Below, in pieces: positions 31,225 through 45,261 of a DNA stretch of 46,619 nucleotides (position 1 is its first letter; every line of letters begins with the position of its first letter). The position numbers and the translations under genes were made by a program. This DNA is from Sulfurospirillum sp. (GTDB lineage Bacteria > Campylobacterota > Campylobacteria > Campylobacterales > Sulfurospirillaceae), in the NCBI GenBank assembly GCA_045047115.1, contig JASFYR010000018.1:1-46619 (forward strand), read 5' to 3'. The notes under the pieces were generated by a model. The model was not told the DNA's origin. It made no database searches and saw nothing but the letters and a program-made list of their open reading frames with translations.

Positions 31225-31250
31225 CATATATTAATATATCTTGATATATG
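31225..31250. promoter_or_regulatory. Putative ArsR operator
   Basis: CATATATTAA-tatatc-TTGATATATG inverted repeat (one mismatch) 31 nt before arsR; near-identical core upstream of arsP. Confidence 0.7.
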
Positions 31251-31281: not shown

Positions 31282-31593
31282 ATGGATATTTTTTTAAAAA
31301 CAGTTGGTGCCATAAATGATGAAACCAGACTTAAAATTTTGAGATTTATAGATATAAATAAAGAAGTATGTGTCTGCGATATAGAGAGTTCATTTGATAT
31401 GATTCAATCTCGCATATCAAGACACTTGAAAATTTTAAAAGATGCAGGATTTTTAACAGTTGATCGAAGAGGCAGGTGGGCATATTATAGCATCAGAACA
31501 CCATTAGATAGATTTAGGCAAGGTGTGCTTGAAGAGATAAGTTTTTTAGAATTAGATACACCAAAGCTTTGCACAGGATGCAAAAATGAGTAA
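31282..31593 (+). CDS. arsR: ArsR/SmtB family As(III)-responsive repressor
   Basis: EVCVCD, QSRISRHLKILK, RRGRWAYY; C-terminal CTGC. Confidence 0.92.
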   Translation: MDIFLKTVGAINDETRLKILRFIDINKEVCVCDIESSFDMIQSRISRHLKILKDAGFLTVDRRGRWAYYSIRTPLDRFRQGVLEEISFLELDTPKLCTGCKNE

Positions 31594-32026
31594 AAAAGTA
31601 CTGGTGATGTGTACGGGAAACAGTTGTAGAAGCATCATAGGCGAGGCTTTGATAAATGCTTTTTTAGATGAGGTTAGTGCTTATAGTTGCGGTGTAAAAC
31701 CAAACGGAGTTGTAAATTCAAATGCAAAAAAAGTTCTTCAAAATCATAATATTTGGGATGATAGCTATCATCCCAAAAATTTTGATGAGGTATTACACAT
31801 AGATTTTGATTTAGTTGTAACAGTTTGCGACAATGCAAAAGAGACCTGCCCGATGTTTCCAAATGTAGCGAATAGCGGTTCCGAAGGAAACATTCCTCGA
31901 AAACCAGTAAAAAAGATACATATTGGTTTTGTTGATCCGGATGGAAAAGAGTATAGCGAGTTTGAAAAAACATACAAAGAGATAAAAAAAAGGCTTTTGC
32001 CAAGGGTAGAAGAGGCGCTGAATTGA
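31586..32026 (+). CDS. arsC: Thioredoxin-dependent arsenate reductase (LMW-PTPase fold)
   Basis: CTGNSCRS, TVCD, ETCP, DP motifs. Confidence 0.92.
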   Translation: MSKKVLVMCTGNSCRSIIGEALINAFLDEVSAYSCGVKPNGVVNSNAKKVLQNHNIWDDSYHPKNFDEVLHIDFDLVVTVCDNAKETCPMFPNVANSGSEGNIPRKPVKKIHIGFVDPDGKEYSEFEKTYKEIKKRLLPRVEEALN

Positions 32027-33273
32027 TACTTCCGGGCATAATATTTGCACTAACACTACTGTTTGTTATATGGCAACCAAGAGGTTTGCAGATAGGCACG
32101 ACTGCTGTTGCAGGGGCAGTTGTAGCACTTTTGGCGGGCGTGGTTGGTTTGGATGATGTAGAGATTGTCATCTCTATCGTATGGGATGCAACATTGGCAT
32201 TTATCGGTATCATCATACTCTCTTTGGTACTTGATGAGATAGGTTTTTTTGAGTGGAGTGCCATCAAAATGGCAAAACTGAGCCGAGGAGACGGAAGATG
32301 GATGTTTGTAAATATCCTGCTTTTGGGCGCATTAGTCTCTGCATTTTTTGCAAATGACGGAGCAGCACTCATACTCACACCAATAATGTTAGCAAAGATG
32401 AAGTACCTAAAGATGGATAAACTGGCTATCTTTGCTTTTTTGATGGCTGGTGGTTTCATAGGGGATAGTGCATCAAATCCGTTTATTATATCAAATCTGA
32501 CAAATATCCTCACCGCCGACTACTTTAATATAGGTTTTTTAGAGTATCTTAGAAATATGTTTTTGCCAAACTTGCTTTCAATTATAGCTTCCATAACGGT
32601 TTTGTTTATATACTTTAGAAAATCTATACCAAAAAAAGTCGATATAGATTTGCTTCCTGAGGCGTCATCAGTCATAAAAAATCAAACTATGTTTAAGCTT
32701 AGTTGGTATTTTTTAACACTTTTGATGGCAGGGTACTTCATCGGCGATATATATCTTGTGTCAGTTTCCATCTTCGCACTCGGTGGTGCTTTGATATTTT
32801 TGGCGATTGCCACCTATTTTAAAGCAGTAAAACCCATAGAGACCATCAAAACCGCTCCTTGGCAAGTTGTCTGGTTTAGTATAGGTCTATATGTTGTGGT
32901 TTATGGCTTGAAAAACGGGGGCTTAACGGATGATTTAAGCAGACTTCTTTTGAGTATAAAACCCTATGGTGAGCAGGTTTATATCATAGCAACTGGTTTC
33001 ATAAGTGCCTTTTTGAGTGCTGTCATGAACAATATGCCAACTATTATGATCATGGATATAGCCATAGATAAAACAGGAGATACCTTTCTTGCGTATGCAA
33101 ATATACTAGGTTGCAACTTAGGACCAAAGATGACTCCCATAGGCTCACTAGCAACACTTTTATGGTTGCATGTATTGGCAAAAAAGGGTGTGAAAATAGG
33201 TTGGGGGGAGTATATGAGGGTAGGAGTAGTTATTACCATACCCGTTCTCTTTATAGCTTTATTGGGTTTGTAA
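32023..33273 (+). CDS. arsB: Arsenite efflux pump ArsB
   Basis: VIWQPRGL, VWDAT, FANDGAALILTPI, SNLTNI, APWQVV, NNMPT, LGPKMTPIGSLATLLW. Confidence 0.95.
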   Translation: MILPGIIFALTLLFVIWQPRGLQIGTTAVAGAVVALLAGVVGLDDVEIVISIVWDATLAFIGIIILSLVLDEIGFFEWSAIKMAKLSRGDGRWMFVNILLLGALVSAFFANDGAALILTPIMLAKMKYLKMDKLAIFAFLMAGGFIGDSASNPFIISNLTNILTADYFNIGFLEYLRNMFLPNLLSIIASITVLFIYFRKSIPKKVDIDLLPEASSVIKNQTMFKLSWYFLTLLMAGYFIGDIYLVSVSIFALGGALIFLAIATYFKAVKPIETIKTAPWQVVWFSIGLYVVVYGLKNGGLTDDLSRLLLSIKPYGEQVYIIATGFISAFLSAVMNNMPTIMIMDIAIDKTGDTFLAYANILGCNLGPKMTPIGSLATLLWLHVLAKKGVKIGWGEYMRVGVVITIPVLFIALLGL

Positions 33274-33281
33274 TTAGAGGG

Positions 33282-34637
33282 CTAAATAGAAATATTATAC
33301 TTTTGCAGGATCTTTCTAAGTGTGCTTCTTGAGATTTGCAGGTGATTTGCAAGGTGGGTGATGTTGTCGCTCTTTTTTGTAAGTGCCATATAGAACTCTT
33401 TTTCTACCTCTTCGAGCATGCTTTTTGCATTTTCTATACCTCTTGATTCTAACATGTATGAAAAGATGTCATTTAGTGCTATCTCCTTTTTATTCTGTTT
33501 TTCAAATTTTATATTCTCTTCTTGAATTACATCTTCGCGAGCATTCAAGGCTGAGTTGTAAACTATGTTTTTTAGTTCCCGTATGTTTCCTTCGTAGTTT
33601 CTGTTTTTTAGAATCTCCAAGGCACTGCCGGATATGCCTTTTATATTTAGTTTCAGATCTTTATTTGCCTTTTTGATGAAAAAATCAACCAAAATAGGTA
33701 TATCTTTTGTTCTTTGTTTGAGTGTTGGAACCTCAATTTTAATCATAGAGAGTCTAAAGTATAAATCTTGTCTAAAACTCTCTTTTTCTATATTTTTATT
33801 TATGTTGATGTTTGTAGCAGATATTATCCTTCCTTTAAATTTTATGTCGCTGTTTCCGCCGACTCTTTTAAATGTTTTATTTTCTAAAAAACGAAGCAGT
33901 TTGCTCTGTAGTGTAATGTCAAGCTCACCTATTTCATCTAAAAACAGAGTACCCTCTCCAACTGTTTCGGCAAAGCCAATATGTTGTTTATTGGCATCTG
34001 TAAATGAGCCTTTTTCGTGTCCAAAAAGTTGGGATTCAAACAACTCTTTTGGTATGGAGGCACAATTTACAGCTAAAATCTGTGATTTTGAGTTTTTTGA
34101 GTTTTTATGTATGAGCCTGGCTATTAACTCTTTTCCTGTGCCTGTATCTCCCAAAATCATCACGGGCAAGTCATTGTTTGCCGCTATACCGATTTTGCTG
34201 TATATCTCTTTCATAGTCTCAAATGAACCGACAAACTCTTCATTTATCTGATCCATCACCTTTATATAGCTCTCTTTTTTCTCATCATACTTTTTTGCTA
34301 CATCTTTGAGTTCATCCGCCGTAAAAGGTTTTTGGAGTATATCTTTTATGCCTATTTTTGAAGCCTCTATCATGTTTGTGGGAGTCGTGTAGGCAGTCAT
34401 AAGAATCACAGGCAGATTTACACTGTTTTGCCTTAAAGTCTTTACTAGATCAATACCGGAAAAATCATCACTAAGCATGACATCTACTATCAAAAGGTTT
34501 ATCTCACCTTCTCGTATGCGTTTGACTATATCCACCTCAAGTCCACTAAAGAGCAGTGTTTCATACTTCGCTCTTTTTAAGATTTTTGAAACAGAGTATC
34601 TTATCTCATCCTGGTCATCTATAATCGCGATTTTCAT
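33282..34637 (-). CDS. Sigma-54-dependent (NtrC-family) response regulator, AioR/ArxR/ArrR-like by context
   Basis: Receiver IIDD..VDVML..QKP; GDTGTGKE, ESQLFGHEKGSFTDA, LFLDEIG, FRQDLYFRL, GNIREL; Fis-like HTH. Confidence 0.92.
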   Translation of the reverse strand: MKIAIIDDQDEIRYSVSKILKRAKYETLLFSGLEVDIVKRIREGEINLLIVDVMLSDDFSGIDLVKTLRQNSVNLPVILMTAYTTPTNMIEASKIGIKDILQKPFTADELKDVAKKYDEKKESYIKVMDQINEEFVGSFETMKEIYSKIGIAANNDLPVMILGDTGTGKELIARLIHKNSKNSKSQILAVNCASIPKELFESQLFGHEKGSFTDANKQHIGFAETVGEGTLFLDEIGELDITLQSKLLRFLENKTFKRVGGNSDIKFKGRIISATNININKNIEKESFRQDLYFRLSMIKIEVPTLKQRTKDIPILVDFFIKKANKDLKLNIKGISGSALEILKNRNYEGNIRELKNIVYNSALNAREDVIQEENIKFEKQNKKEIALNDIFSYMLESRGIENAKSMLEEVEKEFYMALTKKSDNITHLANHLQISRSTLRKILQKYNISI

Positions 34638-36304
34638 CACCTCTCCTCTAGTGGTAGGTTTATCAAAAATGTTGTCTCTTTTTTATCTGCTAAATTCATC
34701 TGCCCGCCTGAGAGATAAACTATCTTATAAATCGTAAAAAGACCGAGTCCGGAACCATTTGGTTTTGTAGTAAAAAATGGCTTAAAAATCTTTTTTCTAA
34801 GGGCTTTCGGTATGCCACTGCCACTGTCTTTGATTTTTAAAAGGCTCATATTGTTAGAGCTTTTACTCCAGTCTATATCTATCTCACCGCCATTTTTTAT
34901 GGCCTCTATGGAGTTGTTAATCAGGTTCATAAATATCATCTCAAATGAGCTATGGCTTATCTTGACTTTCAGATTCTCTTCTACTCTATATGTTAGAGTG
35001 ATGTTTTTCTCTTCCAGTTTTGGTTTTATAATCTCTATCAAATCTTCTAATGAGTTTTTGACATTAAGCACCGTTGCATCTCTTTTGTCTATAGGTTTTC
35101 CAAGTGACAAAAAGTCAACAACTTGAGCATCCATTCTGTTTAGTGTGTTGTTTATGATTTGTAAATCTTCCGCATCCAAATCCTCTCCGTCTTGCAGTAA
35201 AAGTTTTAAGGGTTGCAAAAGATTTTTTATCTCGTGTGCGAAGAGTGAGCTTATCTCCCCTAAAGTTTTTAAAGAGTGCAAAATCTTCTCATTCTCTTCC
35301 AGTTTTGAGAGTTGGGTTATATCTGAAAATGATATGACCAGATACTCATTTACCAACCTTATCTGATAGTACAAAGAGAGGTCTTCTCCTAAATCATTTG
35401 TGATTTTTTGTTTGCAAAATGTACAGGAGTTGTCTTGGTAGCATTTGATCAGCTCTTTTATGTAGGAGCTTTTAAATTTACCGTTTTTTAGTAAAAGCTT
35501 TCTCATTTGGTGCTCATTTTGGTACATTATATTTAGATTTTCATCGCAAATAACGATAAATATATCAACTGAAGCCAAAATCTGTTGATAGAATTTTTTG
35601 AGCTGCTCCTCTTTTTCAACAGAGTCCTTTATCTCTCTCATAAGGTATGTCGTAGTCTTAACCAGATCAGTAATCTCATCATTTTCAACGCTCTGTATCT
35701 CCTGTATATCGCCCCATCTTTTTTGAGAGATTGCTTTTGCATTTTCTCTTAGTATATTTAGTCTGTCAAGCAGGTTTTTCATAAAATATATAGCAAAAAG
35801 AAAGGAGAAGAGAGCGGCAAAAATCATAATCAAAAAATTTGTTGAAAAACTTTTTTCAAGCATATTTTTAATCGAGTTTTTTTCGATGTCCAGCGTAAAA
35901 TATCCAAGCAAAACCCCATCTTTTTTAAATGGTAAAATTGTATGCCTCTCTTTATCGTCCAAAATCGTTCCGATTCTGTGTTTTTTTGTGTCCGTATGTG
36001 CTAAAACGATAAAGTTTGTATCGACAATCCCGGCATCTTTGATAGTTCTGTTCTTGGAGAAGGATTTTAAAAACTTAAAAAGTGCCCAGTTGTCATTTGC
36101 CAAAATCGCACTTGTTAAAAAATCCTTGTTTGATTGGATGTTGCTGTCTATCATTTCGCTTATGATTTCATTTGTCTGTTTTTTGGATGTATCAATCGCA
36201 AGCATAACTATAACAGTTGAGAAAGTAGCAATGATGATGAAGATTAACACGGCTAGTTTGGTATATATGGATAGAGAGTGTAATTTTTGTATCAGTTTTC
36301 TCAT
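34637..36304 (-). CDS. Sensor histidine kinase, AioS/ArxS/ArrS-like by context
   Basis: Two TM helices, HAMP-like linker, FAHEIKNLL, DSGSGI, FKPFFTTK, GSGLGL. Confidence 0.9.
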   Translation of the reverse strand: MRKLIQKLHSLSIYTKLAVLIFIIIATFSTVIVMLAIDTSKKQTNEIISEMIDSNIQSNKDFLTSAILANDNWALFKFLKSFSKNRTIKDAGIVDTNFIVLAHTDTKKHRIGTILDDKERHTILPFKKDGVLLGYFTLDIEKNSIKNMLEKSFSTNFLIMIFAALFSFLFAIYFMKNLLDRLNILRENAKAISQKRWGDIQEIQSVENDEITDLVKTTTYLMREIKDSVEKEEQLKKFYQQILASVDIFIVICDENLNIMYQNEHQMRKLLLKNGKFKSSYIKELIKCYQDNSCTFCKQKITNDLGEDLSLYYQIRLVNEYLVISFSDITQLSKLEENEKILHSLKTLGEISSLFAHEIKNLLQPLKLLLQDGEDLDAEDLQIINNTLNRMDAQVVDFLSLGKPIDKRDATVLNVKNSLEDLIEIIKPKLEEKNITLTYRVEENLKVKISHSSFEMIFMNLINNSIEAIKNGGEIDIDWSKSSNNMSLLKIKDSGSGIPKALRKKIFKPFFTTKPNGSGLGLFTIYKIVYLSGGQMNLADKKETTFLINLPLEER

Positions 36305-37167
36305 TTTTTATCTTTGAGGAAATTTAACATAGTATATATCTTGTCATAAGTTTGATTTGTTGGTTTCTCAAATCTGTCTATATTTAGATGATTGAGTATC
36401 TCTTTGCCAATTTTCGTTTTGTACATATTTAAAAAAAGCTTTTGGAGTTTTTGAAACTCTTTTGGATTTAGGTTGGATCTTGCTACGATGGGAGAGATGG
36501 TGAAAGGGCCAAGTTTTTGCACAACTCTTAGTTTTTTTATATCTTTCGGGTGTTTATTTGCATATTGGGTAAGCACCAGACTATCCACACTTGCACCGTC
36601 AACAAAACCTTCAAGAACAGCATTTATAGACTCTCCATGGTCATATGTATATATAAGATGGTGAAAAAATTTTCCTATTTTATATCCATTCTTTTCTATG
36701 TTATAAGTAGGAGCGATTGAGCCTGATGTTGAGTCAGGATCGGTAAAGGCATAGATTTTTTCTTTAAAATCAAGAATATTCTTGTATTTTGTGTCTTTTA
36801 AGGCTATGACATCCGAGTAGTATTTGTCATTACCGTTTATGATGGGTATCGCCAGAAGTCTTGCATTTTGTTTGTCTTTTAGCAGTGTATATGTAGAACT
36901 ACAAACATATGCAATGTCAGATTTTGAGTCTTTTATATTTGATACAACCTCTGCATAAGTTCTTGCAAATTTTATATCTATTTTAAATTTTGAATTACTT
37001 TCTAGATATTTTTTCCACTGAAGATATGTTTTGAGATCCTCTTTTAAAGTGGTGCCTGTAAATGAAAAAGTAATATCTTGTGCGTTTAATGATGAAAAAA
37101 ATATAGAAACTAAGATTAAACTGGTAAAAATTTTACCGCCAATGGAAATTTTTTTATCATTTTCCAT
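36301..37167 (-). CDS. Periplasmic oxyanion-binding protein of PhnD fold, AioX/ArxX/ArrT-like
   Basis: Signal peptide; DIAYVCSSTY with the single Cys, YYS, AFTDPDSTSG, TYDHGESINAV, DGASVDS; coupled to kinase and regulator, no ABC permease nearby. Confidence 0.82.
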   Translation of the reverse strand: MENDKKISIGGKIFTSLILVSIFFSSLNAQDITFSFTGTTLKEDLKTYLQWKKYLESNSKFKIDIKFARTYAEVVSNIKDSKSDIAYVCSSTYTLLKDKQNARLLAIPIINGNDKYYSDVIALKDTKYKNILDFKEKIYAFTDPDSTSGSIAPTYNIEKNGYKIGKFFHHLIYTYDHGESINAVLEGFVDGASVDSLVLTQYANKHPKDIKKLRVVQKLGPFTISPIVARSNLNPKEFQKLQKLFLNMYKTKIGKEILNHLNIDRFEKPTNQTYDKIYTMLNFLKDKK

Positions 37168-37220
37168 AATATTTCCTCTTGAAAAATTTGCAAATCCCTA
37201 AATTTTGGGATTCTAAAAAG

Positions 37221-37236
37221 TTGGAACAGTAATTGC
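37221..37236 (+). promoter_or_regulatory. Sigma-54 (-24/-12) promoter of the molybdoenzyme operon
   Basis: TTGGAACAGTAATTGC: GG-N10-GC, matching the Campylobacter/Helicobacter RpoN consensus; divergent from an enhancer-binding protein operon. Confidence 0.85.
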
Positions 37237-37308
37237 GCCTATATGTATACAAAATCTGTGAGCGAATTATATACAGATATTTTGAAAAACAACTTTAAAG
37301 GAGTTGCT

Positions 37309-38265
37309 ATGAGCAAAGAAGAGCTTTCGAGAGTTGATGAAAAATTAACTTTGGAAACAGATGAATCTAGAAGAGGTTTTCTAGATAAGTTTTCAAAAGG
37401 TATCTTTGGGGGATTGATTGCAAGTGGTGTTGTAAATGCGCTTGCTCCTGTTCAAGCCAAAGCAAATATGGATGGCAGTAATTTAAATTTTTCTGAGCCG
37501 TTTAAACCTTTTGATTTACCACCTGAGCAACCGGGTGAAGATGGTATTCTTAGAATGATGAGAGACATACAAAGAGCACTAAAAAAACCAATAGAACAAA
37601 GACATTGGAAAATGGTGATTGATTTAAGAAAATGTGTCGGTTGTGATGCATGTTCAGTATCATGTGCTGCTGAGAACAAATTGCCGCCGGGAGTGATATA
37701 TAGACCTGTAATTCAACAAGAGATAGGAACATATCCAAATGTTGGACATGTAACACTTCCTCGCCCTTGTATGCAGTGTGATGAGCCTCCTTGTGTTCCT
37801 GTCTGTCCGGCTGAAGCTACATGGAAAAGACCGGATGGTATCGTAGTAGTTGATTATGATCAATGTATAGGTTGTAGATACTGCTTAAATGCCTGCCCTT
37901 ATGATGCAAGAACATTTGACTTTGGGCTGGAGTATATAGATGGCACAGCAGACGCACCAAAGGTATTTTTAGGAAAAGATAAAGCAGGAAAATACGAGAC
38001 TGAAGCCTCATTTGAGTACTCAAAAGAGTGGAAAAGAGAGGGAGAAAAATCTCCTATCGGAAATGCAAGAAAATGTCACTTCTGTATCCCTAGAATTGAA
38101 AAAGGTATGCTTCCTGAATGTGTGGTTACATGTATAGGCAGGGCTACATATTTTGGTGACGGTAGTGATCCGCAAAGTCTAGTGGCTGAGCTTATAGCTC
38201 TACCAAATGCTTTTAGACTAAAAGAAGAAGTAGGCACACACCCTAGTGTGTACTACATCAAGTAG
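37309..38265 (+). CDS. Tat-exported iron-sulfur subunit with four 4Fe-4S clusters (TtrB-like)
   Basis: SRRGFL Tat motif; [54 protein letters not shown] before ATG 37309. Confidence 0.9.
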
Positions 38266-38274
38266 GAGGATGAA

Positions 38275-39444
38275 ATGACAAGAGAAAAGATGGGAAACAT
38301 CCTTGTTTGGATTTTGATAATTGGTTTTGGAGCATGGGGGCTTCCGGGCTTGATGGATAGATTTGCAAATGGTCATGTAAATACGGCCTATGGCTCATAT
38401 ATTCCTTGGGGACTCTGGATTTCAGCATATATCTGGTTGATTGGTTTGTCAGCTGGAGCTTTGATGATCTCTGTTATGACTTATGTGTTCAATGTTGAAG
38501 CTGTAAAAAAAGTGGGAAAAATGGCATTGTTGGTGGCGATTGCTACTCTGGTTGGAGCTATGATTTCCGTTGGATTAGACCTCGGTCATCCACTAAGAGC
38601 TTTCAGTTTGATATTTGACCCAAATCTAAGTTCTATGATGGGTTGGATGGCAGTATTGTACTCAGCCTATTTCATAACTCTTTGTGCGGAGTTGTTTTAT
38701 GCGATTAGAAAAGAGCAGGTACAAGGCGCAAGACAAAAGAGTATAAAGAGAATTTTAACTGTTTTGGGTATATGGAGTATCCCTTTGGCATTTGCATTCC
38801 ACGGAGGTGTTGGTGGAGTTTTTGCCAATGTTATAGCAAAACCATACTGGCACGGACCGATGACGCCCATTGTATTTTTAGCAGGTGCATTTTTGAGTGG
38901 AGGAGCACTGTTCGCCATAGTAGCTTATGTGTGGAGACCAAGCGAAAACAAAGATGAGTTTTTAAAGATGATGATTTTCCTTGGAAAAACAACTTTGGCA
39001 CTTTTGATTTTAGATGAGATTTTAGAACTATCAGAAGTATATGTAGGAACTTTTTACTCTCAGTTTGGAGAGGGACACCTTTGGCAGCAAGTTCTATTTG
39101 GTCAGTATTGGTACACATTTTGGATAGTTCATATCCTAATCGGTGTTTTGATACCATTATTTTTATTGACAGCAAAGTCAAAATCCCCGGGTGCGATCGC
39201 ACTGGCAGGACTTTTGATAGCAGGTAGTTTTTTGGCTGTAAGATTAAATATCGTGATTCCAGGTATGCTAGATCCTGAGTTAAAAGGTATAGCAGATGCA
39301 TGGGTGCATAGCAAACTAACATTCTCATACTTACCATCCATTATGGAGTGGCAGGTACTGTTTTTTATAGTAGCAGTTGTAATGGCGGTATTTATGATAG
39401 GAAAAAAAGTCTTACCAATATATCAAACAGAGGGAGAAGAGTAA
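38275..39444 (+). CDS. NrfD/PsrC/TtrC-family membrane anchor (quinol oxidoreductase subunit)
   Basis: PWGLWISAYIWLIGLSAG, LDLGHPLR, SSMMGW, RLNIVIPG; about 10 TM helices. Confidence 0.92.
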   Translation: MTREKMGNILVWILIIGFGAWGLPGLMDRFANGHVNTAYGSYIPWGLWISAYIWLIGLSAGALMISVMTYVFNVEAVKKVGKMALLVAIATLVGAMISVGLDLGHPLRAFSLIFDPNLSSMMGWMAVLYSAYFITLCAELFYAIRKEQVQGARQKSIKRILTVLGIWSIPLAFAFHGGVGGVFANVIAKPYWHGPMTPIVFLAGAFLSGGALFAIVAYVWRPSENKDEFLKMMIFLGKTTLALLILDEILELSEVYVGTFYSQFGEGHLWQQVLFGQYWYTFWIVHILIGVLIPLFLLTAKSKSPGAIALAGLLIAGSFLAVRLNIVIPGMLDPELKGIADAWVHSKLTFSYLPSIMEWQVLFFIVAVVMAVFMIGKKVLPIYQTEGEE

Positions 39445-42400
39445 TGAAAAACGAAATGATAAAAAATAAACCAATGGACAGAAGAGGCTTTTTAAAGACT
39501 TCAGCTCTGCTTGGTGGATCAGCAACATGTTTGAGTGCAGTTGAAAAGATAAACAGTGATGGTTTTGGCAGAAGTAAGATTGACTATCCTTTGAATGATG
39601 CCGAAAATGTGATCTATTCTGTATGTTTGCAGTGTCATACAGCATGTCCAATTAAAGTGAAGATTGAAGATGGAGTTGCTGTTAAGATAGATGGTAATCC
39701 ATACTCAATTCAAAATATGAACAGTCCAATTCCAACTTCAACAGATATTCAAGTCGGTGCAAAGATAGATGCCGGAATCTGTCCAAAAGGGCAAGCTGGA
39801 ATACAAACCATATATGATCCTTATCGTGTTGTAAAAGTATTAAAAAGAGATGGTAAAAGAGGTGAAAACAAATGGAAAGTTATACCATTTGATCAAGCAG
39901 TACAAGAGGTTGTTGAAGGAGGAAAGCTTTTTGCAAGTATTCCAGGCGAAGAAAATAGAGTAGTAGAAGGACTTCGTCAAGTAAGAGTGCTTACAGATGA
40001 AAAAATAGCAAAAGCTATGGCTGGGGATGCTATGAATGTTGGAAAAGGCAAAATGAGCTTAGCAGACTTCAAAACAAAATATGCTGCTCATTTGGATGTG
40101 CTGATAGATCCGGATCAGCCAGATCTTGGACCAAAAAATAATCAATTTCTAATGCTTGCAGGAAGAATGGAGCATGGCAGAAAAGAGTTGGCTAAAAGAT
40201 GGCAAAGAGGAGCCTATGGAAGCAATAACTTTATGGAACATACAACAGTATGTGAGCAATCCCACCATATAGCATATAAGCAGGTAACAAGCCAATATGT
40301 AGATGGTGGAAAATGGAAGATTGTTACAGAGCACATGAAGCCTGATTTTAGAAATGCAAGATTTGTAATCTTTTTTGGAACAGGTTTTGTTGAAGCAAAC
40401 TTTGGACCTCCGATAATGGCAAACCTTGTTACAAATGCAGTAACTAATGAAGGATGTAAAGTTGCCGTTGTAGATCCAAGATTTTCAAAAAGTGCAGCAA
40501 AGGCATGGCAATGGGTTCCCGTAAGACCTGGTGGTGACGCAGCTTTGATATATGGTATGATCAGATGGATGTTTGAAAATAACAAGATAAACAAAGAGTT
40601 TTTGGTAAATGCAAATAAAGCAGCTGCCAAAAAAGCAAAAGAGGAGAGTTGGACAAGTGCAACGCATTTGGTGGCGTATGACAAAGAGGGACCAGCTAAA
40701 AAACTAAGAGCCAGTGACTTGGGTATAGGTACAAGTGACCAATTTGTAATAACAATAGACGGAAAACCAGTTGCTGTAAATACAAATGACAAGTTAAATC
40801 CTGTTGTTGGAGATCTCTATTTCAAAGGCGAATTAAACGGCATCAAAGTTAAATCAGAATTGTACATGGTTAAAGAGTATGCAATGAATAAGTCCATGGA
40901 AGATTGGGCTAAAGAGGCAGGACTCAGTGTAAAAGAGATTGTAAAATTAGTTAGAGAATATACAAAATATGGCAGACAGGCCGGTGCAGAGATGTATAGA
41001 GGACCAGTTCAGCATACAAATGGATATTTTAATGGTATGGCAGTTATCTATCTAAATATGTTGGTTGGAAATATAGACTACAATGGAGGTCTTATCAAGG
41101 GCGGTGGGCACTACCATGAAGATGGAAGCAAAGGTGGACCATTTAACCTTAAGAAAGATCTGTTTGCCGGCAAGACCAAAGCTTTTGGACATAAAATAAC
41201 GAGAGAAGGTTCATACTATGAGAACAGTTCTTACTTCCAGAAAAATGGCTATCCCGCAAAAAGACCTTGGTTTCCTCATACAGGAAATGTTTATCAAGAA
41301 GCTATACCGTCTATGGATGATGCTTATCCATACGGTGTAAAAATTTTAATGACAATCATGGGCACACCATTGCTGTCAAACCCGGCAGCTCAAATGTCAA
41401 TGAAGACTATACTCAATCTTAAAAAAACACCTCTTTATATCGCAAATGATGTAGCAATTGGTGAGACAAGTATGTTTGCAGATTATATTTTTCCTGATTA
41501 TGCTATTTGGGAGAGATGGGGAACACCGCATGTTCCGCCATCAGCAGTTACCAAGATGTCTAAATTTAGACAGCCGACTATTGAGCCTTTAACAGATGTT
41601 GTTACTGTATTTGGTGAAAAACAGCATATAGGTTTTGAATCAATGCTTTTAGCTTTTGCCGAGAGACTAGGACTTCCTGGGTTTGGTGATGATGGTTTTG
41701 GTAAAAGAGTGCCCTTTAAAAGAGTGGAGGATTGGTATCTTAAGCTAGCAGCAAATATAGCTGCAGGTGATCACAAAGGTGATGATTTGCCCGAAGCTGA
41801 TGATAGAGAGATAGAGATATTTAAAAAAGCAAGAAGACATATGACTTCTGCTACATATGAATATGATAGATGGGAAAAAGCCTGTACGGATGCAGGTGGT
41901 AAAAGTTGGTTTAAAAAGACTATATATCTTCTAAATCGTGGTGTTAGAGGTGAAGATTATACAAATTACACCAAAAATGTAGAAAACAGTGATAAGATAC
42001 TGCATAAATTTGGAAAAATGTTTAATTTTTACTGTGAAAAGGTTGCAAATACAAGACACAGCTATACCGGGAAGAAGTTTAGTGGTATAAGTCAATACAA
42101 CCATGCTATAGACTATGCCGGTAAAGAGGTTGTAGGAAGTTCGGCATATCCTTTAAAATCTATAACCTACAAGCCAATAACCGGCGGTCAGGCCAGAACT
42201 CAGGCAGTTGACTATTGGTTGCAGGCAATCATGCCGGAAAACACTATAGATCTAAATACTCAAACTGCACTGGAGATGGGTTTTAAAGACGGTGATATGG
42301 CAAAGATTGTTTCGGCTGATAATCCTGAGGGTGTTTGGGATTTGGGACCATCTGGCAAGAAGCCTATGATTGGAAAAATCAGAACCGTTGAAGGTTTGAA

Positions 42401-42626
42401 GCCAGGTGTTGTGTGTACCTCTTGGAGCTTTGGTCACTGGGCATATTGTGCTAGAGATATTATTGTTGACGGCAAGATTATCAAGGGTGAAAAATCAAGA
42501 GAAGCCGGTATTTGCTCAAATGCTGCCTTAACAGTTGACAGTGGATTGAAAAACTCTACTCTTGAGGATATGGTTGGTGGCTCTGCAGTCTTCTATGATT
42601 CGTTTGTAGGACTCGTAAAAGCTTAG
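39444..42626 (+). CDS. Tat-exported bis-MGD molybdoenzyme catalytic subunit, TtrA/SrdA-like (1060 aa); putative arsenic oxyanion oxidoreductase
   Basis: DRRGFLK; C-X2-C-X3-C-X44-C FS0 motif; HTTVCEQSHH; VVDPRFS, ETSMFADYIFPD, SFGHW; ATG overlaps the upstream TAA. Confidence 0.9.
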   Translation: MKNEMIKNKPMDRRGFLKTSALLGGSATCLSAVEKINSDGFGRSKIDYPLNDAENVIYSVCLQCHTACPIKVKIEDGVAVKIDGNPYSIQNMNSPIPTSTDIQVGAKIDAGICPKGQAGIQTIYDPYRVVKVLKRDGKRGENKWKVIPFDQAVQEVVEGGKLFASIPGEENRVVEGLRQVRVLTDEKIAKAMAGDAMNVGKGKMSLADFKTKYAAHLDVLIDPDQPDLGPKNNQFLMLAGRMEHGRKELAKRWQRGAYGSNNFMEHTTVCEQSHHIAYKQVTSQYVDGGKWKIVTEHMKPDFRNARFVIFFGTGFVEANFGPPIMANLVTNAVTNEGCKVAVVDPRFSKSAAKAWQWVPVRPGGDAALIYGMIRWMFENNKINKEFLVNANKAAAKKAKEESWTSATHLVAYDKEGPAKKLRASDLGIGTSDQFVITIDGKPVAVNTNDKLNPVVGDLYFKGELNGIKVKSELYMVKEYAMNKSMEDWAKEAGLSVKEIVKLVREYTKYGRQAGAEMYRGPVQHTNGYFNGMAVIYLNMLVGNIDYNGGLIKGGGHYHEDGSKGGPFNLKKDLFAGKTKAFGHKITREGSYYENSSYFQKNGYPAKRPWFPHTGNVYQEAIPSMDDAYPYGVKILMTIMGTPLLSNPAAQMSMKTILNLKKTPLYIANDVAIGETSMFADYIFPDYAIWERWGTPHVPPSAVTKMSKFRQPTIEPLTDVVTVFGEKQHIGFESMLLAFAERLGLPGFGDDGFGKRVPFKRVEDWYLKLAANIAAGDHKGDDLPEADDREIEIFKKARRHMTSATYEYDRWEKACTDAGGKSWFKKTIYLLNRGVRGEDYTNYTKNVENSDKILHKFGKMFNFYCEKVANTRHSYTGKKFSGISQYNHAIDYAGKEVVGSSAYPLKSITYKPITGGQARTQAVDYWLQAIMPENTIDLNTQTALEMGFKDGDMAKIVSADNPEGVWDLGPSGKKPMIGKIRTVEGLKPGVVCTSWSFGHWAYCARDIIVDGKIIKGEKSREAGICSNAALTVDSGLKNSTLEDMVGGSAVFYDSFVGLVKA

Positions 42627-42633
42627 ATATATC

Positions 42634-42669
42634 GTGCCTGCCAATCTCTATCCTATATTTGGCAGGCAC
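42634..42669 (+). terminator. GC-rich hairpin after the catalytic subunit (stabiliser or weak terminator)
   Basis: GTGCCTGCCAA-N14-TTGGCAGGCAC, no U-tract. Confidence 0.55.
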
Positions 42670-42692
42670 ACCAGAGATACAGGAGAAGTCTT

Positions 42693-42980
42693 ATGTATAT
42701 GATGTTTATCAAGCGTTTGTTTTTTGTAGTTTTGTTGGTTTTCGCAAGTTCTGCTTCTGCATATGATTATGCTTTGTTGCCAGAGATTGTTAAAACAAAT
42801 ATCGCAAAACAGTATGAAGGTGAAGATATAAAAATCCTATCAGTGAGAAAAATGGGAGCAAAATTTAGGATTATCATAAAAACTGAATCAGGTAAGGATA
42901 AAGTCGTTGTTACTAAAAAAGGAAAGATTCTAAGTATAAGTGATTATCTAGCAGGCATGGAACCATCAGGAGGATGTTGA
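42693..42980 (+). CDS. Small secreted protein, possibly PepSY-like, ending GGC
   Basis: SD AGGAG, signal peptide ASA/Y; paralogue of the next gene (TKKGKILSI). Confidence 0.75.
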   Translation: MYMMFIKRLFFVVLLVFASSASAYDYALLPEIVKTNIAKQYEGEDIKILSVRKMGAKFRIIIKTESGKDKVVVTKKGKILSISDYLAGMEPSGGC

Positions 42981-43246
42981 AGTACATACTTGTTATTTGC
43001 ATAAGTTGCACTATAGTACTTATGGCAAATGAACAAGATATGCAAAGAGTAAAAAACAGTATCAAGATATACTTCAAAAATCAAAATATTATCTTTTTGC
43101 ATATAAAAGAGATGACAAATAAAAACTATTTTGTTATCATAAGAAACAACAATATGCAAGAAAGAATCGAAACTACCAAACATGGAAAGATTTTAAGTAT
43201 AATTGATGACTTAAGTGTGGTTGATGAAGCAGAAGAGGGGTGCTGA
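42974..43246 (+). CDS. Small secreted protein, possibly PepSY-like, ending EGC
   Basis: Signal peptide; TKHGKILSI; overlaps upstream stop. Confidence 0.72.
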   Translation: MLKYILVICISCTIVLMANEQDMQRVKNSIKIYFKNQNIIFLHIKEMTNKNYFVIIRNNNMQERIETTKHGKILSIIDDLSVVDEAEEGC

Positions 43247-43407
43247 GTGTATAAATCCATAGCAGATTAAGCAAATAGCAAATGTATTTGGAAAATAAAA
43301 AATTAGCCAACAATTCCCATTAGTATGAAATCTAAGTATTTTTTTAGATATAATAAAATTTTATATCTAAAACTAATGAAAATATTACTTTTAAGGGGCG
43401 GACTAAC

Positions 43408-44199
43408 ATGAAAAAAAAGTTATTTACAGGATTGATTTTAACAGTTATATCTTTTAGTCTGTTTGGAGCTAAAGTAACTCAAAAACAGTGCAATGTAAAA
43501 ACAGATGGAAGTTATATTTTTGCAGGCGGGGAGTGTATTCAATATGCAGTGTTTAAAGGCGATAAAAAAGGATTTCTAAATATCATAGTACACGGGACTT
43601 GGAAGGAGGGAACTAATATCTTGGCTAGATATGCTCCTTTTGCACAAACCATAAATATAAATACAGATATAACTACTTTAGCAGTTGCACTTCCAGGGTA
43701 TTCAAAATCATCTACAAACTATTTTTCGGCTTTGTCTCACGATAAAACCAAAAATCTTGCTACTGACAAAAAATATATCGAGTTTTTAGGAAAGTTAATA
43801 GAAAAACTAAAAGAAAAATACAAAGCCAAAATTGTAACCTATATCGGACATTCAGCCGGTGCCGCTATGGGAGCAACTTTGAGCGGAATGAGACCTTTGC
43901 TTGCAAATAATTATGTATTGGCCGGTGGTAAGTATAAATCTGGAAAAAAGGGAACAGTACATATATCCGAATACCTAGACAAATTAAATAAAAATACAAA
44001 ATACATCTTGGTATATGGTACAAAAGATAGGATATCGAAGCCAAAAATTACACTTGATTTTTATAAAATAGCAAAAAAACAGGGGTTAAATGTTGAGCTT
44101 GTAAGAGTTAAGGGTGCGAAACATCTAGATCTTGATATGAGCGATCCCTCTGTAGAAGCTATAACCCGTATGCTAGACAATTATAACTCCATAATGTAA
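43408..44199 (+). CDS. Secreted alpha/beta hydrolase
   Basis: Signal peptide; VHG, GHSAG nucleophile elbow, GTKD, AKH triad candidates. Confidence 0.8.
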   Translation: MKKKLFTGLILTVISFSLFGAKVTQKQCNVKTDGSYIFAGGECIQYAVFKGDKKGFLNIIVHGTWKEGTNILARYAPFAQTININTDITTLAVALPGYSKSSTNYFSALSHDKTKNLATDKKYIEFLGKLIEKLKEKYKAKIVTYIGHSAGAAMGATLSGMRPLLANNYVLAGGKYKSGKKGTVHISEYLDKLNKNTKYILVYGTKDRISKPKITLDFYKIAKKQGLNVELVRVKGAKHLDLDMSDPSVEAITRMLDNYNSIM

Positions 44200-44224
44200 T
44201 AATAACATTAATAATATTTTATAG

Positions 44225-44276
44225 TCACAATAATATTAATATATCAATATATATTGATATATTAATATTATTGTGA
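44225..44276. promoter_or_regulatory. 52-bp perfect palindrome containing a putative ArsR operator
   Basis: TCACAATAATATTAATATATCAATAT|ATATTGATATATTAATATTATTGTGA upstream of arsP. Confidence 0.75.
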
Positions 44277-44310
44277 TATACTTCGGCTACTAAAGATAAT
44301 TAGGATAATC

Positions 44311-45261
44311 ATGTGGAAAGATACAGTAGATTTTATAACAGTTAATGTCTTGGGTTTAAGTGGTCGTATAAATGATACTATCAACTTTTTTATATATGAC
44401 ACATTTAAGATTTGGTTCTTACTTATTAGTATCATATTCGTGGTTTCATATCTGAGAACGCATTTTAATACAGAGTATGTCAGAGCACATCTACAGGGAA
44501 AATCACAATTTTACGGCAATATTTTAGCTGCACTTTTTGGGATAATCACACCATTTTGCAGTTGTAGTGCCATACCTTTGTTTTTAGGTTTTATACAGGC
44601 TAGGATTCCTTTAGGGGTGACTTTTAGCTTTTTAATTTCAAGTCCTATGAATAATGAGATAGCAATAGCGCTTCTTTTTGGACTTTTTGGCTGGAAAATA
44701 ACTGCTATATATATCGGCTTTGGTCTATTTGTAGCGATATTAGGTGGATATATTATCGGTAAAATGGGCATGGAAAAATACATACTCTTAGATGTAAAAC
44801 CTATGGAAGGCGAACTAGATGAGGTCGTTATAAAGCTCACATTTAAGCAAAGAATCAAAGAAGCTTGGGCATATACGGCAGACATATTTAAAAAGATTTG
44901 GTTTTATGTTTTGATCGGTGTCGGAGTCGGTGCATTTATACATGGTTATGTGCCGGCAGATTTGATAGTGAAGTATGCCGGACCAAATAATCCGTTTGCG
45001 CCGTTAGTGGCAGTTATGGCTGGAATTCCGATGTATAGCAATGCAGCCGGTGTAATGCCTTTGATTGAAGTTCTAACTTCAAAAGGTATGGCTTTAGGAA
45101 CAGCTCTTAGTTTTATGATGGCTATAACCGCACTTAGTCTGCCTGAAGCTATGATTTTAAAAAGAATTTTACATATAAGATTGATAGGGGTCTTTTTCGG
45201 TATAGTAGGTTTAGGGATAATATGCATAGGGTATTTATTTAATTTTATATTAAGTACCTAA
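44311..45261 (+). CDS. arsP: ArsP (DUF318) permease, organoarsenical efflux family
   Basis: ITPFCSCSAIPLF, FSFLISSP, GIPMYSN, GTALSFMMAITALSLPE. Confidence 0.88.
   Translation: MWKDTVDFITVNVLGLSGRINDTINFFIYDTFKIWFLLISIIFVVSYLRTHFNTEYVRAHLQGKSQFYGNILAALFGIITPFCSCSAIPLFLGFIQARIPLGVTFSFLISSPMNNEIAIALLFGLFGWKITAIYIGFGLFVAILGGYIIGKMGMEKYILLDVKPMEGELDEVVIKLTFKQRIKEAWAYTADIFKKIWFYVLIGVGVGAFIHGYVPADLIVKYAGPNNPFAPLVAVMAGIPMYSNAAGVMPLIEVLTSKGMALGTALSFMMAITALSLPEAMILKRILHIRLIGVFFGIVGLGIICIGYLFNFILST

Follow-up and report, generated by a model that had tools for sequence, protein, structure and literature searches.

Organization of the locus

The sequence analyzed here, termed the window, is the 46,619-nucleotide contig JASFYR010000018.1 of Sulfurospirillum sp. 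(assembly GCA_045047115.1). It is contig C18 of a 2.14-Mb genome (G000) rated 100% complete, whose nearest relatives are Campylobacterota, two of them labelled Sulfurospirillum. The window carries a regulatory triad (R, S, and X) divergent from an operon for a three-subunit molybdoenzyme (B, C, and A). Together they probably form an arsenate-respiration module that works like Arr yet is not Arr, with an enzyme of the Ttr family that is not a true Ttr. The order from left to right is arsR-arsC-arsB on the forward strand, R-S-X on the reverse strand, B-C-A on the forward strand, two small genes, a cytochrome c remnant, a hydrolase gene, and arsP. A preliminary description of this DNA placed six genes, R-S-X divergent from FeS(B)-NrfD(C)-Mo(A), at positions 33282 to 42626, and all six are present there with open reading frames. 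It also placed the block between arsRCB and arsP. The arsRCB genes do abut R, but arsP lies 1.7 kb past A, and four features that went unmentioned intervene. The block contains no Rieske gene and the genome has no match to aioA, so the earlier conclusion that this is not Aio stands. The genome has no match to arrA either.

R (33282..34640, reverse strand) is an NtrC/AtoC-type sigma-54 activator by domain and motif matches, and S (34637..36304, reverse strand) is a sensor histidine kinase by its domains. X (36301..37167, reverse strand) belongs to the AioX/ArxX/ArrX subfamily of periplasmic binding proteins and has a predicted arsenic-oxyanion ligand. There are no ABC transporter permease or ATPase genes in the block; X is encoded with a kinase and a regulator. 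B (37309..38265, forward strand; domain and NCBIfam matches) is a four-[4Fe-4S] subunit of 318 residues with a predicted twin-arginine translocation (Tat) signal. C (38275..39444, forward strand) matches the NrfD/PsrC-type quinol-reacting membrane anchors and has nine predicted transmembrane helices. A (39444..42626, forward strand) is a predicted Tat-exported catalytic subunit of 1060 residues with a molybdenum or tungsten bis(pyranopterin guanosine dinucleotide) cofactor, assigned by profiles, fold match, and trees. The B-C-A order, the Tat motifs on A and B, and the length of A (~1060 residues) are as first described, the motif of B being Tat-like. The most likely start of B is the ATG at 37309, which has a ribosome-binding site and aligns with relatives; an alternative, longer open reading frame (ORF) would start at 37243, only 7 nt after the -12 element of the promoter described next. 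With the start at 37309, the gap between X and B is 141 bp.

This gap contains a predicted sigma-54 (-24/-12) promoter of B-C-A (37222..37236, forward strand) and, just 5' of it, an inverted repeat (37193..37212) that is a candidate activator site. The TGG and TTG of the promoter are invariant in 14/14 aligned upstream regions, ten before B-C-A and four before arrCAB operons, and the inverted repeat is common to both kinds of region. In the window alone, sigma-54 matches are at chance level (2 found, 1.9 expected), so the site counts only by its conservation. The rpoN gene was found in the genome.

A is a Ttr-family enzyme outside the true TtrA clade

A starts at the ATG at 39444 with a Tat motif, and its FS0 cysteines are C61, C64, C68, and C113. 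The spacer between the third and fourth of these Cys is 44 residues, as noted earlier, but it does not qualify as a Ttr trait because the two canonical-type TtrA proteins measured have spacers of 55-56. The value near 27 quoted for ArrA/ArxA agrees with our measurements of 26-27, and Psr is the same. The segment HTTVCEQSHH, predicted to hold the metal ligand, lies at residues 266-275. The ArrA segment given for comparison, HSSICAE, was inexact: it is HSSVCAE in PDB 6cz7 and HSAICAE in the family's own ArrA. G240-R241, H266, and C270 of A align with the Gly-Arg, His, and metal-ligand Cys of ArrA, which makes C270 the predicted metal ligand, and the Gly-Arg pair aligns with ArrA R165. The pair is invariant in 29/29 aligned relatives and was found in 80/80 metagenome relatives, which had been chosen on motifs other than Gly-Arg. 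Every arsenic-converting enzyme is reported to carry Gly-Arg and true Ttr to lack it, with mutagenesis still needed (PMC12949373). B has 16 Cys in four cluster motifs.

The best NCBIfam matches of A and B are TtrA and TtrB. A scores 447 bits with the TtrA model and 118 bits with the ArrA model, compared to ~1070-1140 bits for the family's full-length ArrA proteins with the latter. Another Ttr enzyme of the same genome scores 961 bits with the TtrA model, and both it and A are under the cut-off of 1750. The NCBIfam cut-offs were not used alone for membership because ArrA and Ttr proteins of this family likewise score below them. A is 27-30% identical to annotated TtrA and ~23% identical to ArrA. 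The best fold match of its structure model is ArrA (6cz7). The mean predicted local distance difference test score (pLDDT) of the model is 79.5, and no pocket geometry was taken from it because segment 267-270 and other cofactor loops are below 50. The ESM Atlas returned only unnamed molybdopterin clusters for A.

Trees of the DMSO reductase family were computed with FastTree from 73 rows and with IQ-TREE (LG+G4) from 30 of those rows, without bootstraps. A lies in a supported clade (100 in FastTree, 99 in IQ-TREE) apart from TtrA and from Arr/Arx. Its members, at 45-66% identity, carry labels such as Ignavibacteria, Calditrichaeota, Deferrisoma, and Chloroflexi. The approximately unbiased (AU) test rejected trees in which the group of A was forced together with the canonical Ttr rows (six in all; p-AU 2e-11), the nesting within bona fide TtrA on which the preliminary description had made its proposal depend. 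It also rejected trees in which this group was forced together with three Arr/Arx rows (p-AU 1e-35). A falls outside the Arr/Arx class by length (1060 residues compared to ~830-940) and by spacer (44 compared to 26-27). It falls inside the TtrA/SrdA family and outside the true TtrA clade, which is the criterion for a Ttr-like arsenate reductase.

The window genome holds both this arsenic-linked Ttr-like enzyme and a canonical Ttr. The second ttrBCA (G000:C2:14037-19030; L021:6038-11031) lacks Gly-Arg, groups with Klebsiella TtrA, and is paired not with TtrSR but with a separate regulator and a kinase that has a Cache domain; it serves as an in-genome control for A.

Three other kinds of Ttr-family gene came to light in the searches. 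On a plasmid of Citrobacter arsenatis LY-1 (L058:10019-15414), a B-C-A operon is divergent from arsR within an ars island. Its enzyme forms a separate branch with Gly-Arg and an HTNICELSHH loop, near-identical copies are on several enterobacterial plasmids, and by its context the operon likely encodes an ArsR-controlled arsenate reductase. A 1155-residue Ttr-family protein with Gly-Arg and a fused N-terminal Fe-S domain (L057:8269-11736, genome G031) is encoded near selenium-metabolism-like genes with no B or C alongside. Haloarchaeal plasmids (L059 and L063) have B-C-A-TorD operons that lie beside the Gly-Arg clade yet lack Gly-Arg, with a Bat-domain gene as the apparent regulator.

X keeps the arsenic pocket of AioX, ArxX, and ArrX

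The best PDB match of X is ArrX (E 1.5e-35), followed by AioX (1e-26) and PhnD (2e-16). Compared to NT-26 AioX, taken from a plasmid record, X keeps 7/7 arsenic-pocket residues (Y71, C89, Y116, S146, S148, H177, and D195). In AioX numbering, the pocket of AioX, ArxX, and ArrX consists of Tyr88, Cys106, Tyr131, Ser161, Ser163, His192, and Asp210 (PMC5908839). C89 is the single Cys of X that had been pointed out, and the intact pocket supports the assignment of the triad to the AioXSR/ArxXSR/ArrTSR type. The TtrS sensor domain has 0/7 of these residues and PhnD has 4/7, without the Cys or the Asp. Ten oxyanions have been assayed: AioX and ArxX bound As(III) only, ArrX bound As(V) and phosphate, and none of the three bound tetrathionate, thiosulfate, selenate, antimonite, or sulfate (PMC5908839).

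X is 46-52% identical to the X proteins encoded beside arrCAB in Sulfurospirillaceae, with 47% in one comparison. It groups with these Arr-linked proteins rather than with Aio-linked X at moderate support (Shimodaira-Hasegawa-like approximate likelihood ratio test [SH-aLRT] 93), and it has a polar TT in the signalling loop where AioX has VF. S has two transmembrane helices (17-35 and 157-175) and an intact His box. R has the receiver Asp, Walker A and B motifs, and arginine finger; its GAFTGA loop reads GSFTDA, compared to GSFTSA in an Arr-linked regulator. The regulators encoded next to arrCAB in Sulfurospirillaceae share 55-59% identity with R. AtoC-type regulators have been described for the arrXSR triads of Epsilonproteobacteria (PMC5908839).

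X, and not the ars genes, travels with the enzyme

Linkage was examined in 14 close loci (13 records at 80-94% identity and the locus of genome G075) and in 80 metagenome loci; named records and G-labelled loci overlap partly and were not summed. X is in 13/14 close loci, one of them a paralogue, and the locus that misses it has no upstream DNA. Of the 34 metagenome loci with 7 kb or more of upstream sequence, 24 have a Cys-pocket X; once loci were merged into clusters at 90% identity, such an X was near 20/28 distant clusters. As a control, 21 canonical-type Ttr loci from Campylobacterota, which are related to each other, had neither X nor core ars genes. These data make the Cys-pocket X gene a second, independent marker that travels with the Gly-Arg clade across phyla.

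The ars linkage among homologues that the preliminary description expected is not conserved. Core ars genes are near 1/14 close loci, 10/80 metagenome loci, and 5/28 distant clusters, and ars linkage was rejected as general support; the conserved partner is X. At the junction of rubrerythrin and R, ars genes are present in G409 and absent in G402, G403, and G075. To judge from sequence, arsRCB and arsP are probably an addition for detoxification, under regulation of their own, that some strains carry.

Among 61 genomes of the family, X is in 27, A of the window type (at least 80% identity) in 12, and arrA in 15. The 27 genomes with X are exactly the 12 with window-type A and the 15 with arrA, and no genome has both enzymes (overlap 0/61). 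Genes for aioA co-occur with 6/12 window-type A genomes and 6/15 arrA genomes, and its presence in half of the carriers fits a reductase standing in for Arr. Twenty regions around X were inspected, and X is divergent from arrCAB, aioBA, or B-C-A in all but three, which are cut short by a contig end or show no enzyme. The family thus offers a natural swap experiment, with one type of sensor and promoter placed before either ArrCAB or B-C-A. In a sample of 401 genomes of the phylum, the window type was found in G000 and G075 only, and other matches were 30-34% identical. The cultured strains Sulfurospirillum sp. 1612 and 1307 carry A subunits 85-88% identical to A. For strain 1612, arsenate is listed as not determined, and 'ttr' is mentioned only as sulfur metabolism in the accessible parts of the reports (PMC11406935, PMC13209400).

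Several related loci depart from this layout. In one (L005:3842-7721) stops or frameshifts interrupt each of X, S, and R, with B-C-A and the small genes intact, which would reflect either sensor loss or an assembly error. In three genomes of the window's genus (L117, L120, and L121; G410, G407, and G412), aioBA is divergent from a third X-S-R triad, and the G407 regulator lacks the sigma-54 motifs that were searched for; a published survey found aioXSR in Alpha- and Betaproteobacteria only (PMC5908839). In a sister genus (L111 and L113), aioBA and arrCAB flank one common X-S-R triad. In G402 (L119:196-4491), where the contig ends upstream, an X with 7/7 pocket residues precedes genes for a PAS kinase and a regulator of the HD-GYP type and may give arsenic input to second-messenger signalling. 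A binding protein and chemoreceptor (MCP) pair lies 3' of B-C-A in L001 (7378-9881) and 3' of arrCAB in L111 (14316-16819) and L113 (15215-16909); a possible function is chemotaxis towards arsenate.

Secreted proteins with a C-terminal Gly-Cys follow the operon

Two small genes follow A. The first (42693..42980, forward strand) encodes a secreted 95-residue protein with an acidic tail and a C-terminal Gly-Cys, and the second (42974..43246, forward strand) encodes a secreted 90-residue paralogue with the same tail, identified by comparison with relatives. A PepSY-like fold is a lead from the ESM Atlas at a score of 0.80, under 0.9. The small genes occur in the same 12/61 family genomes as window-type A. 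Beside the operon, an ORF on the same strand that ends in Gly-Cys was found in 14/14 close loci and in 13/80 metagenome loci (two of which repeat the close set and one of which is probably spurious), and none was found in 21 canonical Ttr loci or in 11 arr/aio loci of the family. The tail recurs on unrelated folds, most often on rhodanese domains in the distant loci. Only 4/3406 ORFs in the genome end in Gly-Cys. Selenocysteine read-through past the tail was considered and rejected because the stop codon varies among TAA, TAG, and TGA across relatives. SoxY and DsrC have terminal Cys arms, and by analogy the Gly-Cys tail would be a periplasmic thiol carrier arm that could take sulfur, take As(III), or serve maturation. 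These proteins thus point to an undescribed periplasmic thiol carrier.

The other two Gly-Cys proteins of the genome (G000 C9:25804-26163 and C9:157866-158195) are secreted, and no family name was found for either. One gene is within a Psr/Phs-like operon that also encodes a rhodanese, a chaperone, and a Rieske protein, and the other is after YeeE/YedE sulfur-transport genes.

Relation to described systems

The layout of ars genes, triad, and ttr is already published, as is the group of Ttr-like arsenate reductases. The locus of Melioribacter roseus (MROS_1063-1076) was described in 2017 as arsRPCB, a triad named 'ArrTSR', and ttr (PMC5492636), and the novelty first claimed for the system was overstated. 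Like the window, it has ars genes, a phosphonate-binding-fold protein, a kinase, a regulator, a Ttr-like molybdoenzyme, and no Arr, and its ttrA transcript increased with arsenate. Unlike the window, it is from another phylum, its triad is upstream rather than shown divergent, and no Gly-Cys-tail genes are described in the accessible part of the report. Peptides derived from the published ttrA primers place the M. roseus gene in the same broad clade as A: they resemble those of the clade, and the distance between them is 41 codons, which is also the spacing in A and the proteins closest to it, compared to 29 in canonical TtrA.

The earlier statement that Ttr-like enzymes are implicated in arsenate reduction holds, since they are a recognised group (PMC12949373, PMC11462812). 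Such ttrA genes were reported as the main arsenate-reductase transcript in paddy soils, with activity cited for strains PSR-1 and OR-1 (PMC11462812). This is a known, little-studied route of arsenate respiration. The enzymes of Anaeromyxobacter sp. PSR-1, Geobacter sp. OR-1, and Pyrobaculum aerophilum resemble A in being Ttr-family, Gly-Arg-containing enzymes of periplasmic, non-Arr arsenate respiration, and the group is said not yet to be confidently separable from true tetrathionate reductases (PMC11462812, PMC12949373). Primers for soil ttrA assigned to Anaeromyxobacter fit a sister subgroup (L202-L206 and L209) with a WGRLK/CQGSLYF loop, whereas A belongs to the CEQSHH subgroup. The CQGSLYF subgroup is within the same supported clade and is 47-49% identical to A. 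The best-studied Ttr-like members may therefore differ from A at the active site.

The ArrXSR-arrCAB loci of Sulfurospirillaceae share orthologous X, S, and R, the divergent layout, the sigma-54 site, and the inverted repeat with the window; they differ in a catalytic ArrA of 839-865 residues and a C-A-B gene order. TtrBCA/TtrSR of Enterobacteriaceae and Shewanella and SrdBCA of Bacillus selenatarsenatis share the B-C-A order, a Cys-ligated A of ~1000-1060 residues, and an NrfD-type anchor. True TtrA differs from A in lacking Gly-Arg and forming a separate clade, and the TtrS sensor lacks all seven pocket residues. AioXSR-aioBA and ArxXSR-arxB2ABCD share the pocket of X, an AtoC-type R, and an RpoN promoter. 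They oxidise As(III), whereas the window has no Rieske or ArxB2 subunit and A is outside the Arr/Arx clade. In our literature search, which covered few subscription papers, no report placed this enzyme type in Campylobacterota, in agreement with the preliminary description, and none dealt with an Arr/Ttr swap or with Gly-Cys-tail proteins. As far as this search reaches, the exchange of Arr for a Ttr-like enzyme in Sulfurospirillaceae, the named cultured carriers, and the Gly-Cys-tail accessory proteins are new.

A candidate arsenate respiration system and its alternatives

We consider it likely that B-C-A is an arsenic-inducible, periplasmic menaquinol:arsenate reductase of the Ttr-like, non-Arr group. 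The periplasmic ligand of X would be an arsenic oxyanion, As(V) being the likeliest. On binding it, X would activate the kinase S, which would phosphorylate R, and R would open the sigma-54 promoter of B-C-A. C would oxidise menaquinol; menaquinone (MK) and methylmenaquinone are the quinones reported for Sulfurospirillum (PMC11406935, PMC13209400). Electrons would travel via the four clusters of B, and then via FS0 of A, to the Cys270-ligated Mo/W centre, where Arg241 and His266 would hold arsenate, and As(III) would be released. The operon would run in the direction of reduction, conserve energy, and take the role of ArrCAB behind the same type of sensor, as in the sister genera. The idea of an arsenic-sensing X-S-R triad driving a non-Arr, Ttr-like reductase is thus supported by sequence, tree, and distribution; its premise of ars linkage is not conserved, and the system is not a new kind. 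If the mechanism is correct, arrA surveys miss arsenate respirers among these Campylobacterota.

Several observations weigh against an arsenate reductase. In the alignment, the pocket Tyr and Lys of ArrA become M242 and H275 in A; Glasser 2018 is said to have described the roles of that Tyr and Lys in the ArrA pocket. The active-site loop also differs between the subgroups, and activity of the Anaeromyxobacter type is therefore not directly transferable to A. There is no TorD-type chaperone gene in the operon. The co-occurrence mostly tracks genus, with 11/12 carriers including G000 in one genus, which reduces it to a few events rather than 27 because the genomes are not independent; one genus (g3) contains both states. 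For 8/28 distant clusters the flank contains no X. In G421, a clade member at 45% identity is encoded beside a Cache-type kinase, again with no X. The ligand of X is not fixed by its pocket, since these residues do not discriminate As(III) from As(V) (PMC5908839). In M. roseus, the increase of the ttrA transcript under arsenate was not statistically distinguishable, unlike that of psr/phs, and the authors of the study preferred Psr/Phs as the main reductase with Ttr as auxiliary (PMC5492636). A porin-ttrBCA locus of Dissulfuribacter rose on sulfite/H2 (PMC13490349), which counts here if it belongs to the same clade.

The alternatives were weighed on the same data. An ordinary tetrathionate reductase that lies among arsenic genes by chance would account for the best NCBIfam matches, the gene order, and the Tat motifs. 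This explanation is largely refuted by the AU test, the Gly-Arg pair, the low identity to annotated TtrA, the canonical-type Ttr that the genome already has with its own kinase and regulator, and the link to X that is kept across phyla. An anaerobic Arx-like arsenite oxidase feeding electrons from As(III) to the quinone pool is very improbable. AioX and ArxX have the same pocket, AtoC-type regulators, and sigma-54 promoters (PMC5908839), and such an oxidase would not be redundant in G000, a genome without aioA. However, 6/12 carriers already have aioA and none has arrA, X groups with Arr-linked X and has TT rather than VF in its loop, and no ArxB2-type gene is present. MK at -74 mV would also be a poor acceptor for As(III), the As(V)/As(III) couple lying well above it at +139 mV (as cited in PMC13490349). 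The exact complementarity with arrA and the intact arsenic pocket, including its Cys, also speak against a sensor and enzyme of arsenic type that have shifted to another oxyanion (sulfite, antimonate, or selenate), an improbable reading although the Ttr/Srd family is catalytically versatile (PMC10100899) and core ars genes are usually not adjacent. In its favor, the Dissulfuribacter TtrBCA that responded to sulfite has an adjacent porin, and a porin-like gene precedes B in several loci of the clade. The three X proteins tested bound no selenate, antimonite, or sulfate (PMC5908839), and arsenate, but not selenate, supports growth of a Limisphaera strain that has a Ttr-like complex (PMC13608581).

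A thioarsenate reductase or desulfurase acting on As-S oxyanions in sulfidic water, with the Gly-Cys proteins taking the released sulfur or As(III) on their terminal Cys, is unlikely, though the most probable of the alternatives. The Gly-Cys ORF marks 14/14 close loci and 0/21 canonical Ttr loci, the tail is mostly on rhodanese in distant loci, the other two such genes of the genome have a sulfur context, and the active-site loop of A differs from those of ArrA and the Anaeromyxobacter-type subgroup. On the other hand, only 11/51 distant loci with enough downstream flank have a Gly-Cys gene, the tail might instead capture As(III), or help to mature the cofactor, for an ordinary arsenate reductase, and the clade is also in lineages not tied to sulfidic settings. 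No published thioarsenate-binding test of X was found in our literature search. In its widest form, the idea makes the CEQSHH subgroup a periplasmic thioarsenate-respiring system in which secreted Gly-Cys-arm carriers, PepSY-like here and rhodanese/TPR-like elsewhere, accept sulfur or As(III). We regard this extension as equally doubtful. The dominance of As-S species in sulfidic water would then explain why such a system took the place of Arr in one lineage of Sulfurospirillaceae.

The ars genes and other neighboring features

The arsR gene (31282..31593, forward strand) matches Pfam HTH_5 and is above the cut-off of NF033788. It is followed by arsC (31586..32026, forward strand), a cytoplasmic arsenate reductase of the low-molecular-weight phosphatase (thioredoxin-type) class with a Pfam LMWPc domain, whose best NCBIfam match is arsenate reductase, under the cut-off. 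The arsenite efflux pump gene arsB (32023..33273, forward strand) scores 591 bits with NF011980, compared to a cut-off of 457. The arsP-family permease gene (44311..45261, forward strand) was assigned by domain match. A palindromic candidate ArsR operator lies 5' of arsR (31234..31249), and a second, near-identical candidate lies 5' of arsP (44239..44262). The box had five matches in the window compared to 0.23 expected, with the query site counted twice, and this evidence is weak because the sequence is AT-rich. A scan of 42500-44400 for sigma-70 promoters and terminators gave no signal above chance.

Between the small genes and arsP lies the remnant of a monoheme cytochrome c gene (43247..43298, forward strand), recognized by comparison with the C-termini of intact relatives. 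The gene is intact at the same position in most relatives, and here the start and the last ten codons are left. The gene for a secreted alpha/beta-hydrolase-fold protein (43408..44199) was otherwise seen after the operon only in L004 and L005. A second copy of arsP is on contig C33 of the genome, outside any ars context.

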